Virus record (IMG/VR): IMGVR_UViG_3300034171_000048
Coordinates: 1 to 48,815 of that record
Direction: 5' to 3' (one strand)
DNA from: a virus
Lineage: Duplodnaviria; Caudoviricetes
Length of the DNA: 48,815 nt
Position 1 is the first letter of the stretch. Each line of letters opens with the position of its first letter. The position numbers and the translations under genes were made by a program. Positions 1-48,661 of the stretch are shown here, one piece after another. A model generated the notes under the pieces. That model worked only from the letters and a program-made list of their open reading frames with translations, was not told the origin of the DNA and did no database searches.

Positions 1-127
1 GGACATGGTGGGTATGACAATGGTGCAAATAGAGGTAGTGTTTATGAGAAAACTGTAAACCTAAAGGTTGCATTAAAGTTAAAGAAATTCTTAGTTGACC
101 AAGGAATTGATGTTATCATGACAAGAA
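1..127. repeat. Terminal overlap (1-127 identical to 48689-48815); circular assembly, genome 48,688 bp
   Basis: Exact sequence match GGACATGGTGGG...ATGACAAGAA at both ends; the amidase ORF reads through the join. Confidence 0.95.
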
Positions 128-669
128 GTACTGATGAATATACTAGTTTATCAGAAATAACAAATCTTGCAAATGAAAACCATGCTAATTTACTAATTTC
201 AATTCATCATAATGCAGGAGGTGGAGATGGATTTGAAGTCTATCATTCCATATATAATGGTGTTGGATTAGAACTTGCCAATAAGGTTGCAGCTGGTTTC
301 AAGTCACTTAACAATGCTCATGGTATGGCAGTAAAAACTAAAAAAGGTTCTGATGGTAGGGACTATTTTTCAGTTATAAGAAATAGTGTGATGCCTTGTA
401 TATTAACAGAATTTGGTTTTATGGACACAGATGATTATTATGCGTTCAATAGTAATGCTGAGTTACAAGCCGAAGCAAATGCACTAGGTAAAGCAATATG
501 TAATCAACTTGGAGTTAAAATTATCCCAAAGGTTAATTATGTACTGGAAACACAGAAGTTCTTAAATGGATTGGGAATAAAAGATGTTATGGGTAGACCA
601 CTAGTTGAAGATGGCATAATGGGTGTACACACTCAGACAGTACTGGATAGATTAATAAGGAAATTATAA
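1..669 (+). CDS. Endolysin, N-acetylmuramoyl-L-alanine amidase (Amidase_3) with C-terminal peptidoglycan-binding-like segment; true start at 48662 across the join
   Basis: Joined protein MVNKVTINAGHGGYDNGA...EK...ISIHHNAGGGDGFEVY...ILTEFGFMD; C-terminal LVEDGIMG. Confidence 0.92.
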   Translation, partial: GHGGYDNGANRGSVYEKTVNLKVALKLKKFLVDQGIDVIMTRSTDEYTSLSEITNLANENHANLLISIHHNAGGGDGFEVYHSIYNGVGLELANKVAAGFKSLNNAHGMAVKTKKGSDGRDYFSVIRNSVMPCILTEFGFMDTDDYYAFNSNAELQAEANALGKAICNQLGVKIIPKVNYVLETQKFLNGLGIKDVMGRPLVEDGIMGVHTQTVLDRLIRKL

Positions 670-683
670 AGGAGGAAAGTATC

Positions 684-827
684 ATGGAAGTTGGAGAAAG
701 AGTAGAAGTTAAACTATCCAAGGATTGGGTAATGGTTTTAGCCATTATGGATGAAGGAGTATTATGTAGAACCAAAGATTGTAAAGAAGTTTTATTTTAT
801 AATTTTGAACTACGAGAATTAAAATAA
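684..827 (+). CDS. Small hypothetical protein (47 aa)
   Basis: SD AAGGAGG, ATG 684, MEVGERVEVKLSKDW...ELK*. Confidence 0.7.
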   Translation: MEVGERVEVKLSKDWVMVLAIMDEGVLCRTKDCKEVLFYNFELRELK

Positions 828-848
828 GAAGTACAGAGGTGATAATCA

Positions 849-872
849 ATGTGGTTTTGGTTATGGTGGTAA
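849..872 (+). CDS. Putative Trp-rich leader peptide MWFWLWW
   Basis: SD GAGGTGA 836-842, 6-nt spacer, ATG TGG TTT TGG TTA TGG TGG TAA. Confidence 0.5.
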   Translation: MWFWLWW

Positions 873-928
873 TCCAAATGACCTACGAGAAATCGTGGGT
901 TTAACCAAAAAATAGGAGTTGTGACATA

Positions 929-1264
929 ATGAGTGAAGATTCTATTCGTTTAGAACTTGATTATATAAAGCATGATATAGTAGAAATAAAGGCTGAGGCG
1001 AAGGAGTATAGTAACAAGATGAGCATTGACTTGTTGTATAACCATGATGCTAATATTAGAAATGAAATAAAATTAGAAAATATAGAAAAAAGTCAAAACA
1101 GTTTGATTGAAATTGTAACTGAAATAAAAAATAAGCCACTTATGGATTGGCGGAAAATGAGTAATTTTTGGAAGTTTTCCATAATAGGTGCAGTAATTGG
1201 GTTTGTTGTTCCTTGGATAATTGGAAATTTTATGACATTCACTAAAATATTTGGAGGTAATTAA
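929..1264 (+). CDS. Lysis-module membrane protein (coiled coil plus one C-terminal TM; XhlA/holin-like)
   Basis: Helical N-terminus, hydrophobic FSIIGAVIGFVVPWIIG, position between lysin and holin. Confidence 0.6.
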   Translation: MSEDSIRLELDYIKHDIVEIKAEAKEYSNKMSIDLLYNHDANIRNEIKLENIEKSQNSLIEIVTEIKNKPLMDWRKMSNFWKFSIIGAVIGFVVPWIIGNFMTFTKIFGGN

Positions 1265-1447
1265 ATGAATAAAAAATGGTATATGAGTAAAACGTTATGG
1301 GTTAACTTTATAGGCTTTATAGCAATAGGAATCCAAGTAGTAACTGGAGAACAGTATTTTAGTCCAGAATATCAAGCTATGGCACTAACAGTTGTAAATG
1401 CTATATTAAGAATGGTAACAAAAGAACCACTAAAGATTAAGAAATAG
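1265..1447 (+). CDS. Holin
   Basis: 60 aa, KKWYMSKTLWVN, two TM segments, basic C-terminus, lysis module. Confidence 0.75.
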   Translation: MNKKWYMSKTLWVNFIGFIAIGIQVVTGEQYFSPEYQAMALTVVNAILRMVTKEPLKIKK

Positions 1448-1469
1448 ATGCCGAAAGGTGTCTTTTTTT
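1446..1469 (+). terminator. Rho-independent terminator ending the late/lysis operon
   Basis: AGATGCC-GAAA-GGTGTCT followed by a T run. Confidence 0.85.
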
Positions 1470-1948: not shown

Positions 1949-2425
1949 GTGATAACAATGAGGTTAACAGATAAACAAAGGATAATAGTTACCGAGAATC
2001 ATAACTTGATATATTGGATGATTAATAGAAAACATTTAGAAATGTCAGAATACTACGACCTCTTAAGTTTGGAACTGTGTTATGCGGTAATGAAGCATGA
2101 CCCAAGCAGAGGAAGTTTAGCCAACTATTATAAGTTAAGGTGCGAGGGTGTACTGTATAAGGAGTACAGAAAATCACAAGCACAAAAACGACTTCATACT
2201 AATGTGACGTTAATTGATAATGTGCATACTATTAACAATGATGATTTACAACGAATGGCTGAGTTAAGCGAGTGGATGAATGGTGATGATGGAATTATCC
2301 TACAAATGAAATCAGAAGGTTATTCCCAAACAGAAATCGCCAACCACCTTGGAGTAAGCCAATCATACGTTTCCAAGATACTTAAACGACTTAAAAAAGA
2401 ATTCTATGAAGAGGTGGATTATTAA
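1949..2425 (+). CDS. Phage sigma-70-family (region 2 + region 4 HTH) factor, copy 1
   Basis: NHNLIYW...HDPSRGSLANY region-2-like; GYSQTEIANHLGVSQSYVSKI HTH. Confidence 0.8.
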   Translation: MITMRLTDKQRIIVTENHNLIYWMINRKHLEMSEYYDLLSLELCYAVMKHDPSRGSLANYYKLRCEGVLYKEYRKSQAQKRLHTNVTLIDNVHTINNDDLQRMAELSEWMNGDDGIILQMKSEGYSQTEIANHLGVSQSYVSKILKRLKKEFYEEVDY

Positions 2426-2426
2426 A

Positions 2427-2891
2427 ATGTGTAAACTTACAACGATACAACAGAAAATGATAGAGGATAATCACAATCTCATATATTGGTTCATAAATAA
2501 ATATAAGTTATCGGAAAGTGAGTATTATGGCTTATTAGCAATTGAATTATGTGAAGCAGTCATACACTATGATGAATCCAAGGGTTCTTTAGCGAACTAT
2601 TTTCACCTAGTGTGTAATGGTAGAATATATAAGGAGTATAGAAAATCACAAGCACAAAAAAGGACACATCTTACTGAGACATTAGAATCCAACTTCACGG
2701 TTCCAATCTATGATGATTATAGTGCATTTAAATTGATAGAAGATATAATAGAGGACCCAAACTATTTAATATTTATGCTAAAGAGTACGGGGTATTCACA
2801 ATGCGAAATTGCAAAGAAATTAAATATTAGTCAAAGTTTTGTGTCCAAGATTATATTTAAATTTATGAAGAATTATAAAGAGGAGGAATAG
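2427..2891 (+). CDS. Phage sigma-70-family factor, copy 2 (paralog)
   Basis: NHNLIYW, YDESKGSLANY, KEYRKSQAQKR shared with copy 1; GYSQCEIAKKLNISQSFVSKI. Confidence 0.8.
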   Translation: MCKLTTIQQKMIEDNHNLIYWFINKYKLSESEYYGLLAIELCEAVIHYDESKGSLANYFHLVCNGRIYKEYRKSQAQKRTHLTETLESNFTVPIYDDYSAFKLIEDIIEDPNYLIFMLKSTGYSQCEIAKKLNISQSFVSKIIFKFMKNYKEEE

Positions 2892-2893
2892 TA

Positions 2894-3391
2894 TTGACGG
2901 ATAAGAATTTAGATGATATAATAAAAGACATGGTAGTAATAAGTGATTCCAGAGAGCAAAAGAACAAGCATATCTTGGACTACCTAGATTCAATCAACGT
3001 ACCATATATAACTGAGAAACTTAATAGTGGAGATTATTCATTTATACTTCCACATTACCCACATCTTAATTTGGACAGAAAGATTTTGATAGAAAAGAAA
3101 AACTCGCTTGATGAGATTGCACAGAATTTCACAAGTGGTAGAGATAGATTTTTAAGGGAATTTGAAAGGGTAGCTGATGATGAAACAATGCACCTTGTAA
3201 TTGAACAAGCAACATGGAAGAAGTTACTGAATGGTTCTTATCGTTCTAAGTTTCCAAGCAAATCATTCATGGCTAGTTTGTTAACCTACAGTATAAGGTA
3301 TGATTTTAAAACATGGTTTGTGCAACCTAGTGAGTGTGGCGAGTTGATGTACAATATACTAAAATATTCTTTACGAGAAAGATTAAAATGA
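2894..3391 (+). CDS. ERCC4-domain nuclease (likely resolvase)
   Basis: ISDSREQ, LNSGDYS, IEKKNSLDE motifs. Confidence 0.85.
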   Translation: MTDKNLDDIIKDMVVISDSREQKNKHILDYLDSINVPYITEKLNSGDYSFILPHYPHLNLDRKILIEKKNSLDEIAQNFTSGRDRFLREFERVADDETMHLVIEQATWKKLLNGSYRSKFPSKSFMASLLTYSIRYDFKTWFVQPSECGELMYNILKYSLRERLK

Positions 3392-15999: not shown

Positions 16000-16152
16000 A
16001 TGTTAGAAAAATTAGCCAAATGGTATTTAATTAGATGTATGAAAGGGTTAAAAAGCACTGAAATAGTTATTAATGAAGAATTTTGGACTTACAGAAAGAG
16101 GAATAAAGAGAGAGAAGAGTCTATAAAAAAGACATTAGCTTTAATAAAATAA
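16000..16152 (+). CDS. Small hypothetical protein (50 aa)
   Basis: SD AAAGGAAG; MLEKLAKWYLIRC...*. Confidence 0.55.
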   Translation: MLEKLAKWYLIRCMKGLKSTEIVINEEFWTYRKRNKEREESIKKTLALIK

Positions 16153-16255
16153 TAGGGGACAGCACGGGGAGAAATCCCCTTACATAATTTAAAATAGTTG
16201 TTGACATTGATTCAAAATGATGATATACTGTATTTAATGAAGGGAGACAGTTAAT

Positions 16256-16575
16256 ATGAATTTAACAATTAAATATGATGTTAGTGCAACGGACTATTGT
16301 GGTGAATTTGTTGAGCCAAATATAATTAAAATTTATGTGAATCAATGCAGAAAGGTTAAAAGAAGCATAAAAAATGTAATTGCACATGAACATGTACATT
16401 ATATTATTTATAATATTAATATTCTGCATTATTTAATTAATAAACTAAACGGCCACAGTATAAAAAATGTAGGAACAAAGGAATTATAAATCCTGATGAA
16501 GTTTATAAATATTTGATTGAGGAAAATATATGTGATTTTATAGCAAATATAATAAGCAAAAGATACTATAAATAA
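16256..16575 (+). pseudogene. HExxH metallopeptidase (ImmA/IrrE-like) split by a -1 frameshift
   Basis: IAHEHVH in frame 0 (stop 16489); EENICDFIA in -1 frame (stop 16575); A AAA AAT at 16462-16468; promoter TTGACA-17-TATACT at 16201. Confidence 0.55.
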
Positions 16576-16597
16576 AATTATAAAAGGGGAACTGGTT

Positions 16598-16759
16598 ATG
16601 AAAGAAAGAAGTTGTGAAGATTGTGGTTACTGTAAAGAACATTTATATTTTAGTTATTGTGGTTGCTATGAAAGACAAGACCTTGTTGCATCAAAAAGTT
16701 TAGATTACAGCGAAGCAGAAACTTGTGAGTTTTATGATGATGATAGTTGGATGAAGTAA
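16598..16759 (+). CDS. Small Cys-rich protein (53 aa)
   Basis: SD AAGGGG; CEDCGYC...CGC...CEFY. Confidence 0.6.
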   Translation: MKERSCEDCGYCKEHLYFSYCGCYERQDLVASKSLDYSEAETCEFYDDDSWMK

Positions 16760-16774
16760 GGAGGGTATAATTAT

Positions 16775-16885
16775 ATGATAAACGATATAACATTAATATT
16801 ACAAGTGGCTTGGAAGATGCATTGGTTATGGATACCCGTAATATTTATATTGTTAGCAGAAGTAATTTACGAAAATAAAAAATAG
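16775..16885 (+). CDS. Small membrane peptide (36 aa)
   Basis: SD AAGGAGGG; WLWIPVIFILLA. Confidence 0.5.
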   Translation: MINDITLILQVAWKMHWLWIPVIFILLAEVIYENKK

Positions 16886-16947
16886 TTCTTGACAAGCTGA
16901 ACGATAAGCTGTATAATGAATTTAGAGTTAAGAGGGGGGAATTATAA

Positions 16948-22899: not shown

Positions 22900-23213
22900 T
22901 TGTCACTACTTTGTCACAGTAACAATGAGGCAAGTAGTGGCTTTAAAAAAGGCTATGACTAACTTGTCACTACTTTGTCACTATTTTGTCGAGTGCTAAT
23001 AGCCTCATTCTAACCCCTTTTTACCCTCTTTTTACCTCTTTTTCTTAGTGACAAATAGAAAAGAGAAAAAGAGTATATAAATAGAAATAGAGGTATAGAA
23101 TAGTATAAAGGATGGGGAAAACGCGTCATATTTGTAATGGCAACGTTCAAAGTGAGTGAGAGCCCCAGAGAAGGTTGACAAACCGAATTGTCATTTTTGT
23201 CACACAGCAATCT
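22900..23213. repeat. TTGTCAC iteron cluster, candidate replication origin B
   Basis: TTGTCAC at 22900, 22911, 22964, 22975, 23207; inverted GTGACAA 23048; same layout as 1664-1842. Confidence 0.55.
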
Positions 23214-30027: not shown

Positions 30028-31557
30028 ATGATTTTGAAGGGCAGAGAAAAAATAGTAACTGAGTTTAACTCAGAAGATTTAAAAGATTTTGAAAATCTGA
30101 GAACATTACTGAATACTAGTCGAGCAACACATTTAGAAAACAAAGCTGATATTGATTATCTTATAGCATATCGTAACGGTATTCAACCAGTATTGCTTAA
30201 AGAAAAGGTTGTAAGAGACGAAATAAACAACAAGGTGGTAATTAACCATGCACAAATGGTAACTAGAAATGTTATTGGTTATTTTCTGGGTAATCCAATC
30301 CAATATATCCAAGCAGGGGCAAATGGTAAGGACGAAATAGACTTACTCAATAAGTATGTAGCCTATGAGGATAAATACTCCGTAGATAAAGAGATAGGAG
30401 AGTTTCAGAGCATCTGTGGTACGGCTTTCCGTATAATCTACACGGATGGTGTATATGGAGACGAAGTTCCATTTGAAGACAAAGCATTAAACCCTGCATC
30501 AACGTATGTTGTATATGAAAATAATATAGCAGAAAGACCTATTATTGGAGTGACATATTACACTTTATTGAATGATGAAGGAGAAGTTAAAGGTACAAAA
30601 GTATATGCCTATACTGACTTTGGACTGTATGAAGTGGAAGTGGATACTGATGGACTTGTAATAACTCCAGATGATGTACAGTTCTCACCATATAATGTAG
30701 GTGGAGTCCCAATTATAGAATATCCTAACAATATGTGGAGAATAGGTGACTGGGAACTATGCATTGGTCTTATGGATGCAATCAATAGCTTGCAGAGTGG
30801 TAGACTTGATGATATAGACCAAGTTATACAATCTCTTTTGGTATTTGTTAATGCTGACATTGATGTTGATGGATATGATGAAATGAGAGAAAGAGGAGTT
30901 GTACTTCTTAAGAATAACTCTGGAAATCCAAGTTCGGTTGACTCAATAACTAACACATTAGACCAATCAGGAATGAATCAGTTCTCACAAGAACTCGAAG
31001 CACTATTGTACGCACTTATTGGTATTCCAGATAGAAATAGTCGAAGTGGTGGTGGTGGAGATACTGGTCAAGCCGTTGAACTTAGAGATGGATGGGCAGA
31101 TTTGGAAATCCTTGCTAGAAATAAAGAATTGATATACAAGAGGTCTGAGAAAATGGCTTTGAGGATTATTCTTAAAATAATGAACAATAAAGAATCTATG
31201 GACTTATCACTTATGGATATAGATATTAAATTCACTAGAAACAAGAATAATAACTTGATGATAAAATGTACTAGTTACTCAACGTTATTAGCTACTAAAA
31301 CTTTGTCACCAGCTGATTGTTTAACTATTGTGGATTTGGTTTCAGATGTAAATGAGTATATTGCGAGAGGAGAAGTATTTTGGGGTGATGGTTTTGCAGG
31401 ACAAATTGAAAATAACAATAGGGTTGAGATGTCAAATGTTCAATTGGAAACTGCTAAGAATCCACCAGAGCAAGTAGAAGGAGAAGTAGTTCAACCCGTA
31501 GCACCAGTTAAATCTGAAAAGAAAATATTAGAAAGTAAAGTACAAGGAGGTAAATAA
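30028..31557 (+). CDS. Portal protein (SPP1-like)
   Basis: NNKVVINHA...GYFLGNPIQY, VPIIEYPNN, IKFTRN. Confidence 0.9.
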   Translation: MILKGREKIVTEFNSEDLKDFENLRTLLNTSRATHLENKADIDYLIAYRNGIQPVLLKEKVVRDEINNKVVINHAQMVTRNVIGYFLGNPIQYIQAGANGKDEIDLLNKYVAYEDKYSVDKEIGEFQSICGTAFRIIYTDGVYGDEVPFEDKALNPASTYVVYENNIAERPIIGVTYYTLLNDEGEVKGTKVYAYTDFGLYEVEVDTDGLVITPDDVQFSPYNVGGVPIIEYPNNMWRIGDWELCIGLMDAINSLQSGRLDDIDQVIQSLLVFVNADIDVDGYDEMRERGVVLLKNNSGNPSSVDSITNTLDQSGMNQFSQELEALLYALIGIPDRNSRSGGGGDTGQAVELRDGWADLEILARNKELIYKRSEKMALRIILKIMNNKESMDLSLMDIDIKFTRNKNNNLMIKCTSYSTLLATKTLSPADCLTIVDLVSDVNEYIARGEVFWGDGFAGQIENNNRVEMSNVQLETAKNPPEQVEGEVVQPVAPVKSEKKILESKVQGGK

Positions 31558-48581: not shown

Positions 48582-48661
48582 ATGGTATAAAATATTATGT
48601 GGGTTCGTTGGTAATAATACTATGAATCCACATATTAAATAAAAGGTTGGAGGTATTAATT

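Follow-up and report, generated by a model that had tools for sequence, protein, structure and literature searches.

What is the role of a reading frame of seven sense codons, four of them for tryptophan, that stands behind a strong ribosome site and immediately ahead of two small membrane-protein genes in a phage? The initial annotation had seen here a Trp-rich leader peptide of the trpL kind with an alternative RNA structure in front of holin genes, by which lysis timing might be coupled to tryptophan or charged-tRNA supply. The frame was analyzed in its window, i.e. the whole stretch of DNA studied (48,815 bp), which is a complete IMG/VR virus record with 33% G+C and a direct terminal repeat of 127 bp. 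All long ORFs of the window are on the + strand. The window contains a single tRNA gene, tRNA-Thr, and the phage has no tRNA-Trp of its own. The DNA runs that contain the stretch are labelled brine and marine metagenomes, and contigs of four DNA runs show no variant in 836-918; the listing of public runs includes no RNA run with the stretch.

The leader and the genes around it

The first positions of the window (1..669, + strand) encode the C-terminal 222 residues of an Amidase_3 endolysin (Pfam PF01520, 1.1e-35; phrog_435, endolysin), whose gene starts at ATG 48663 and spans the 127-bp terminal repeat of the record. Between endolysin and leader lies a 47-aa ORF (684..827, + strand) without a match in the Pfam, PHROG and NCBIfam libraries. 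Two genes follow the leader on the same strand. The first (929..1264) encodes a protein of 111 aa whose sequence indicates an N-terminal helical/coiled part and a C-terminal hydrophobic stretch at residues 80-104. It is situated between the Amidase_3 endolysin and the second gene (1265..1447), which begins 596 nt downstream of the endolysin stop and encodes a small membrane protein of 60 aa with a hydrophobic stretch at residues 10-28. A terminator-like hairpin followed by a T run (1446..1463, + strand) closes the cassette, and is also present in a related lineage, L019, described below. The 69-aa ORF that precedes the endolysin lacks a hydrophobic stretch, which leaves the two downstream proteins as the only membrane candidates next to this gene. 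Both genes are likely lysis genes, and we infer the holin role of the second from its position and size. The architecture of the 111-aa protein, a soluble helical N-terminus with one C-terminal TM segment, encoded beside holin and amidase, is one that we take to recall XhlA. The expression "holin genes" of the initial annotation agrees with the size and position of the 60-aa protein and with its nearest ESM Atlas clusters, which are viral and one of which is automatically named "Holin family protein" (score 0.95), but not with the family models: no holin or XhlA model of Pfam, PHROG or NCBIfam matches either protein, and at E up to 1 the Pfam XhlA model matches none of the 9 members of alignment A2 and gives no match to the window protein.

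The mini-ORF itself, ATG TGG TTT TGG TTA TGG TGG TAA, occupies 849..872 on the + strand (stop at 870-872) and reads MWFWLWW*. Its SD, GAGGTGA (836..842, + strand), is located 6 nt before the ATG and belongs to an 8-nt stretch that, in the window and in L019, matches the 16S tail motif perfectly. With a duplex energy of -13.1 kcal/mol the SD ranks in the top 10% when compared to those of 52 long ORFs and in the top 1.8% for 1464 ATGs, the SD duplex energies being calculated with an assumed 16S tail (anti-SD) motif. The combination of an ATG start, up to 13 codons, an SD-like motif and at least 3 TGG is found only once on the two strands of the window. In 300 dinucleotide-preserving shuffles of the window such a frame never appeared with at least 4 TGG, and appeared four times with at least 3. 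Trp accounts for 144 of 12669 residues (1.1%) in the long + strand ORFs, compared to 4 of 7 in the mini-ORF.

A hairpin, ACCTACGA-GAAA-TCGTGGGT, follows on the + strand at 881-900 (880..901 with an extra G880-U901 pair); it has 8-9 bp and an energy of -12.0 kcal/mol. It is enclosed by a second stem, whose 5' arm TTTTGGTTA (855..863, + strand), inside the mini-ORF, is the exact reverse complement of the 3' arm TAACCAAAA (902..910, + strand). The SD of ORF 929, AGGAG (914..918, + strand; duplex -9.8 kcal/mol), comes next, and the ATG is at 929. Folding of the RNA 828-935 gives -27.0 kcal/mol (z = -3.19), a value reached by none of 200 shuffles. The mini-ORF with its hairpin is real and non-random. 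The SD, the ATG at 849, MWFWLWW, the stop at 872, the hairpin, the 9-nt arms, AGGAG at 914-918 and the ATG at 929 had all been placed correctly by the initial annotation, and each can be read in the sequence. As to its two reservations, the hairpin, said to have only a weak U tail, is not called as a + strand terminator in the window, and the other short frame announced at GTG 851 exists, this codon being in frame within a GTG frame at 839..904.

Several other explanations of the interval were considered and set aside. The frame 839..904 (MIINVVLV...) begins within the SD, not at a proper distance from one, and differs in length between lineages (21, 18 and 13 codons); we judge it less likely than the Trp frame to be the one translated. 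Frameshifting or read-through into ORF 929 meets stops at 902-904 in the frame of ORF 929 and at 879-881 in the Trp frame. For translational bypass, a conserved landing UGG is absent. No Rfam family matched any part of 836-918 at E up to 10 when 600-2000 was searched.

Conservation and linkage in three lineages

Neither blastn nor tblastn found a match among isolated phages. IMG/VR contains three contigs identical to the window over the region, which are uninformative, and one contig, L011, that encodes a relative of the 111-aa protein. A scan of the full IMG/VR for the Trp pattern with the hairpin signature returned only these four known contigs, and the IMG/VR scan A4 found nothing. When 15 of the 64 IMG/VR parts were scanned for ATGTGGNNNTGGNNNTGGTGG, the matches listed comprised, besides the known contigs, only out-of-frame coding matches. 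The 401 genomes of the phylum of one holin-bearing MAG yielded 2 marginal matches, without Trp frames, and two MAGs yielded no match. The 111-aa family is rare as well, with 11 relatives among 1.84 billion representatives in an exhaustive HMMER search and zero matches in a word-index protein search; further relatives of the 111-aa protein (P0003-P0009) and holin-like variants (P0016-P0018) exist.

With the 60-aa protein as query, metagenome and genome contigs yielded 54 loci. Among them L018 corresponds to the window, L021 to L011 (100% identity over 4993 nt), and L019 and L020 to a third lineage. L019 comes from a metagenome, and L011 is a phage in which the cassette lies inside the tail operon. 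The cassettes of L019 and L011 contain the mini-ORF, the hairpin, the coiled-coil/TM protein and the 60-aa holin-like protein. The layout common to the three lineages is as follows: a strong SD, 6 nt, an ATG, M-W-(F/Y)-W-L-W-W-(I)-stop, a spacer of 7-12 nt, the GAAA hairpin, 12-20 nt, a second SD and a gene of the 111-aa type. The 47-aa ORF 684..827, which is present in L019 and absent from L011, lies outside this mobile cassette.

In L019/L020 and L011/L021 the mini-ORF reads MWYWLWWI*, the ATG, all four TGG and the early TAA being kept. The SD of L019 is identical to that of the window, that of L011 is GGAAGTGA, and the 6-nt spacing holds in all three. Compared to the window, the differences are a synonymous TTA>TTG, a Phe>Tyr change (TTT>TAT) and one additional ATT, in frame, just ahead of the stop, and all three fit a translated reading frame. 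Codons 3 and 5, which do not encode Trp, have hardly changed either (4 of 6 nt kept; p ~0.06, estimated from one independent comparison). L011 and L019 have mini-ORFs identical at 27 of 27 nt, with flanks that cannot be aligned and hairpin blocks that, by our own count, are identical at 14 of 26 positions. The proteins of the 111-aa type (106-111 aa) are 41-42% identical in pairs (44/107, 45/105 and 44/106 aligned residues), and the 60-aa holin-like proteins 68-75%. Over 3.6 kb, L019 and the window share 83% identity, yet the product of its 111-aa-type gene is only 41% identical. The sample amounts to two mini-ORF alleles and three hairpin variants, all metagenomic; because there are only two mini-ORF alleles, the statistical weight of their agreement is modest.

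The hairpin was examined on a 26-column alignment (A7); a whole-leader MAFFT alignment misplaces the hairpin of L011. Over the three lineages all 27 of the 27 cells are standard pairs, and 5 of the 9 pairs are changed on both sides, which 1 of 500 shuffles equals; when the hairpin partner is slid by 1-3 columns, pairing falls to 21-48%. The GAAA loop is invariant. This covariation, together with the retention of the loop, indicates that the hairpin functions as + strand RNA. It starts 7-8 nt past the mini-ORF stop in the window, 9-11 nt in L019 and 12 nt in L011, the spacer being AU-rich and unpaired in all three, and ends 21-28 nt ahead of the next ATG, at the 5' edge of the corresponding ribosome site and 12-20 nt from the SD. 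In L019 and L011, as in the window, it is not called as a + strand terminator. The 3' tails are TAACCAAAAA in the window, AATTAAAGGG in L011 and GTTTTTG in L019; only the last is U-rich, and the hairpin seems terminator-like in one of the three lineages.

The enclosing stem behaves differently. Its duplex energy is -14.9 kcal/mol in the window, which 4% of shuffles match, compared to -5.3 kcal/mol in L019 (61%) and -4.0 kcal/mol in L011 (73%): the stem is window-specific and at chance level in the two other lineages. The distance from the mini-ORF stop to the next SD is 41 nt, including the hairpin, in the window and, by our own count, 40-45 nt in the relatives. The mean probability that this SD is unpaired is 0.37, 0.64 and 0.84 over the three lineages; it is predicted to be mostly open in two of them, and its sequestration to be inconsistent among lineages. 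The proposals of the initial annotation thus separate at this point. The four TGG codons, the SD, the ATG and the early stop that it singled out are retained in L019 and L011, the only other lineages found; loss of the Trp codons in relatives, by which its proposal would have been refuted, is not observed. Of the stems, the inner hairpin covaries (27/27 and 5/9) and the enclosing one does not rise above chance in L019 or L011, and the pairing of 855-863 with 902-910, which had been proposed as the alternative structure, is a property of the window only.

The mini-ORF is linked to one particular gene. Among the 54 loci it is present in exactly the 4 with a gene of the 111-aa type, as defined by an HMM built from A2. 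Six of the other 50 contain some frame with at least 3 TGG, in no case within 500 nt upstream on the strand of the gene, and 47 of these 50 have more than 500 nt of upstream sequence. In L011 the cassette is found between a tape-measure gene (phrog_8462, 1.6e-39) and distal tail genes, and the 19.6-kb fragment carries no Amidase_3 gene. The leader moves with the cassette, to which it belongs rather than to the endolysin, and is tied to the 111-aa family. The element is rare, small (about 95 nt) and portable between genomic contexts.

Candidate modes of action

The mini-ORF with its hairpin is likely a translated control element. We consider it a well-founded lead, drawn from three metagenomic lineages, rather than a demonstrated regulator. 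The mode of action that we put forward, with more doubt than confidence, is that of a cis-acting translated leader in which the dwell of ribosomes at the UGG codons would tune the downstream genes. Ribosomes would load on the very strong SD, would need to decode UGG four times in a stretch of seven or eight codons, and would stop 7-12 nt ahead of the conserved GAAA hairpin. Their dwell time would be set by the supply of charged tRNA-Trp, which would be the scarcest decoding resource, and would decide the fate of the downstream message, through processing or stability at the hairpin (nuclease access) or through ribosome entry at the next start. The output of the likely lysis proteins would in this way follow the translational state of the host. 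Translation, action in cis, Trp supply as the signal, the direction of the effect and the lysis role of the downstream genes are all elements that we infer. The conserved frame, the changes compatible with it, the strong SD, the covarying hairpin and the linkage to the cassette all argue for ribosome dwell, and the hairpin is placed slightly too far downstream for a terminating ribosome to reach and directly 5' of the next ribosome site. Sensing through ribosome dwell on a very short leader ORF has precedents in RtpLP and MsrDL, both described below, MsrDL being the closest working model in which a single hairpin is used. In the life history of phages lysis timing is a central trait, and the rate of holin translation is known to affect it (10.1101/2025.05.14.654169). 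Should charged tRNA-Trp or translational load be what the mini-ORF senses, host physiology and the moment of lysis would be linked directly at the molecular level.

Against ribosome dwell in cis, there is no conserved pairing from the mini-ORF to the hairpin or to the downstream SD. Since no alternative pairing is conserved, the hairpin is rarely terminator-like and the SD is mostly open, no known read-out mechanism is visible in the sequence, and the absence of a visible read-out step is the main weakness of this proposal. A ribosome at the stop would come into contact with the lowest base pairs of the hairpin at most. A pure codon counter does not require the near-constancy of codons 3 and 5, and the genes supposed to be regulated are unrelated to tryptophan.

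A leader ORF with clustered Trp codons is a known device. What is new here is its place in a mobile phage membrane-protein cassette, its Trp density and the single non-terminator hairpin; no leader-peptide or uORF control of a holin or a lysis cassette was found in open-access papers and bioRxiv. The element resembles trpL attenuators by its SD, its short ORF and its clustered Trp codons upstream of genes. Unlike these (Rfam Trp_leader), it has no conserved terminator or antiterminator, no Rfam match and no trp genes downstream. As terminator, antiterminator and masked SD are not conserved, it is not a trpL-type attenuator; the attenuator first envisaged is reduced to its conserved leader ORF of Trp codons, and loses the terminator, the alternative pairing and a consistently masked SD.

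The phage lambda S holin gene has an RNA stem-loop just upstream, which shapes initiation by choosing between two start codons of one gene. The present hairpin is likewise an RNA stem-loop just upstream of a lysis-timing gene (here of likely lysis genes), whereas lambda has no upstream ORF or Trp codons. As for a holin, the small membrane protein is encoded beside the endolysin in the window; in L011 the cassette is not beside an endolysin. In RtpLP, the leader peptide of the B. subtilis rtpA (anti-TRAP) operon, the leader stop adjoins the SD of the next gene. Here 41 nt and a conserved hairpin stand between stop and SD, so that the arrangement defining RtpLP is not found; the genes behind are those of phage membrane proteins and not of tryptophan regulators, and 4 of 6-7 sense codons are Trp. 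The likeness lies in a very short multi-Trp leader ORF in a Gram-positive-type setting: RtpLP, with three Trp codons, exerts its control on translation, in that translating the leader to its end prevents translation of the next gene, by ribosome position and not by a metabolite-binding RNA (PMC2311275).

A second proposal, rather improbable in our opinion, gives the activity to the peptide. As a micropeptide active at the membrane interface, fMWFWLWW or fMWYWLWWI would be the product of the first gene of a three-gene membrane cassette, and the hairpin an intercistronic stabiliser or a divider of expression. Every residue, not Trp alone, is conserved or conservatively replaced; the top-decile SD, the ATG and the TAA are like those of a real gene, and the frame co-travels with two membrane proteins. 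The peptide consists solely of residues that rank highest for partitioning into the membrane interface (W, F/Y, L, I and M), but U/G-rich codons yield hydrophobic residues regardless of function, which makes composition weak evidence. To our knowledge no lysis system has a functional peptide of 7-8 residues that is directly encoded, and a search of open-access papers and bioRxiv found none. A leader peptide with its own function has been reported, peTrpL (10.1101/606483); very short ORFs are described as prone to peptidyl-tRNA drop-off (PMC2490762). A peptide active by itself would represent a new class of lysis component. The more specific version, in which MWFWLWW itself would be a lysis factor, an abundant interface-seeking Trp peptide made from a ribosome site of top strength that primes or perturbs the membrane for the two downstream membrane proteins, is unlikely; if true, no smaller functional gene product would be known from a phage lysis cassette.

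We would also give little credit to an arrest peptide, i.e. a hydrophobic heptapeptide that would stall the ribosome at termination, perhaps on a small molecule in the tunnel, and so alter the fate of the hairpin. Such a peptide would be of the MsrDL type, after a Firmicute system in which a ribosome stalled on a hydrophobic six-codon leader obstructs a single downstream hairpin (10.1101/2021.11.29.470318). The geometry is similar, with a hydrophobic/aromatic ORF of 6-8 codons, a UAA stop and a single hairpin directly behind, and codons 3 and 5 seem constrained in addition to the Trp codons. However, MsrDL has a hairpin proven to be an intrinsic terminator and responds to a macrolide, whereas here the hairpin is not a conserved terminator, 2 of 3 lineages lack a U tail and the setting is a phage cassette. 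With a spacer of 7-12 nt from stop to hairpin, the ribosome would abut the stem and hardly open it. The mini-ORF contains no TTNTTT pause motif, in two of the three lineages the additional Ile that precedes the stop alters the C-terminal residue, usually critical for termination arrest, and no ligand suggests itself.

The element could act as RNA without being translated, the SD, the G/U-rich tract and the hairpin forming a 30S-binding stabiliser, a processing signal or a site for a UGG-repeat protein. The 8-nt perfect match of the SD to the 16S tail motif in the window and L019 is compatible with such a role, as is the identical spacing of the UGG triplets in the three lineages; cleavage in the AU-rich unpaired spacer, present in all lineages, would leave a protective 5' hairpin on the downstream RNA, and this hairpin ends at the 5' edge of the next ribosome site, 21-28 nt before the ATG. 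We consider this improbable, given that the ATG, the frame and the early stop are all kept and that the sole change in length is an in-frame insertion of 3 nt right before the stop. The search of 600-2000 gave no Rfam match at E up to 10, and a two-tier G-quadruplex with the loop lengths available here was rejected as unfavourable, by a hand calculation with the ViennaRNA energy rule.

Very unlikely, to our mind, is a minigene that would sequester tRNA-Trp, in which, late in infection, drop-off of short peptidyl-tRNA-Trp from a heavily initiated ORF of 7 codons would deplete the only tRNA-Trp species and throttle both host and phage translation. The strong SD, the share of Trp (4 of 6-7 sense codons) and the phage gene content, with tRNA-Thr and no tRNA-Trp, are consistent with it. 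There is also a precedent: minigenes of 3-8 codons with hungry codons sequester tRNA as peptidyl-tRNA, with a larger effect for a shorter ORF (PMC2490762). In that work the effect needs limiting peptidyl-tRNA hydrolase; moreover, the last sense codon is Trp in the window but Ile in L019 and L011, and the conserved hairpin and the link to the cassette would be left unexplained. Finally, that a frame without function arose by chance in a G/T-rich spacer is hardly credible: out-of-frame Trp-rich frames are common in Gly-rich coding DNA, a comparable run of four TGG is located at 31041-31052, where there is a long + strand ORF, and 56 of the 121 ATGTGGNNNTGGNNNTGGTGG matches listed for the 15 of 64 IMG/VR parts are closed within 12 codons, but no such frame arose in the 300 shuffles, the partner hairpin covaries, the frame is kept while the neighbouring protein is only 41-42% identical, and among the 56 listed short frames an SD with a hairpin accompanies only the two rows of known contigs (L100 and L130), as judged by reading the flanks by eye.

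Further features of the region

A second tiny Trp frame, ATG TGG GTT CGT TGG TAA (MWVRW*), is present at 48597-48614 of the window, in the spacer before the endolysin ATG 48663. It has no SD (-2.9 kcal/mol) and begins 5 nt past an extended -10-like site, TGgTATAAA (48583-48591), which means that it could be leaderless. Frames with at least 2 TGG are found in 3 of the 658 + strand ATG frames of up to 9 codons, and 2 of these 3 precede the two units of the lysis region. The counterpart of MWVRW* in L019 is MWVHW*; this region is 95% identical to that of the window and hence carries little information.

The gene of the 111-aa type in L019 (2153-2500), compared to 929-1264 of the window, represents the mosaic replacement of one gene, leader and hairpin being left in place. 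In L011 the whole cassette (2387-3150; G403 16121-16890) forms an insert between the tape-measure and distal tail genes, and a terminator-like hairpin follows at 3042-3065. L011 has a possible promoter of its own, TTGATA-18-TATAAA, just before the SD of the mini-ORF; this is our own reading and was not called by the promoter scan. A conserved promoter just upstream of the leader was considered and rejected, such a site being plausible in L011 only.

Downstream of the cassette, the interval 1471-1530 of the window, directly past the terminator, consists of three overlapping direct repeats of 26 nt placed 17 nt apart, i.e. CTTTCAAAT with a period of 17 nt. The motif TTGTCAC occurs 16 times in the window, compared to a mean of 7.4 in shuffles, 2 of 100 of which reach 16. 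Six copies are clustered at 1664-1842, where a spacer separates the lysis cassette from the first sigma-like gene, and six others at 22900-23203; these clusters look like operators of a phage regulator. Two adjacent and overlapping paralogous genes (1949-2425 and 2406-2891; 158 and 161 aa) have sigma-70 region 4 / HTH matches (Sigma70_r4, 1.8e-05), and the first also matches phrog_351, RNA polymerase sigma factor (5.4e-09). Upstream of these two genes lies the best promoter-like site of the region, TTGACT-17-TATAAT (1890-1918).
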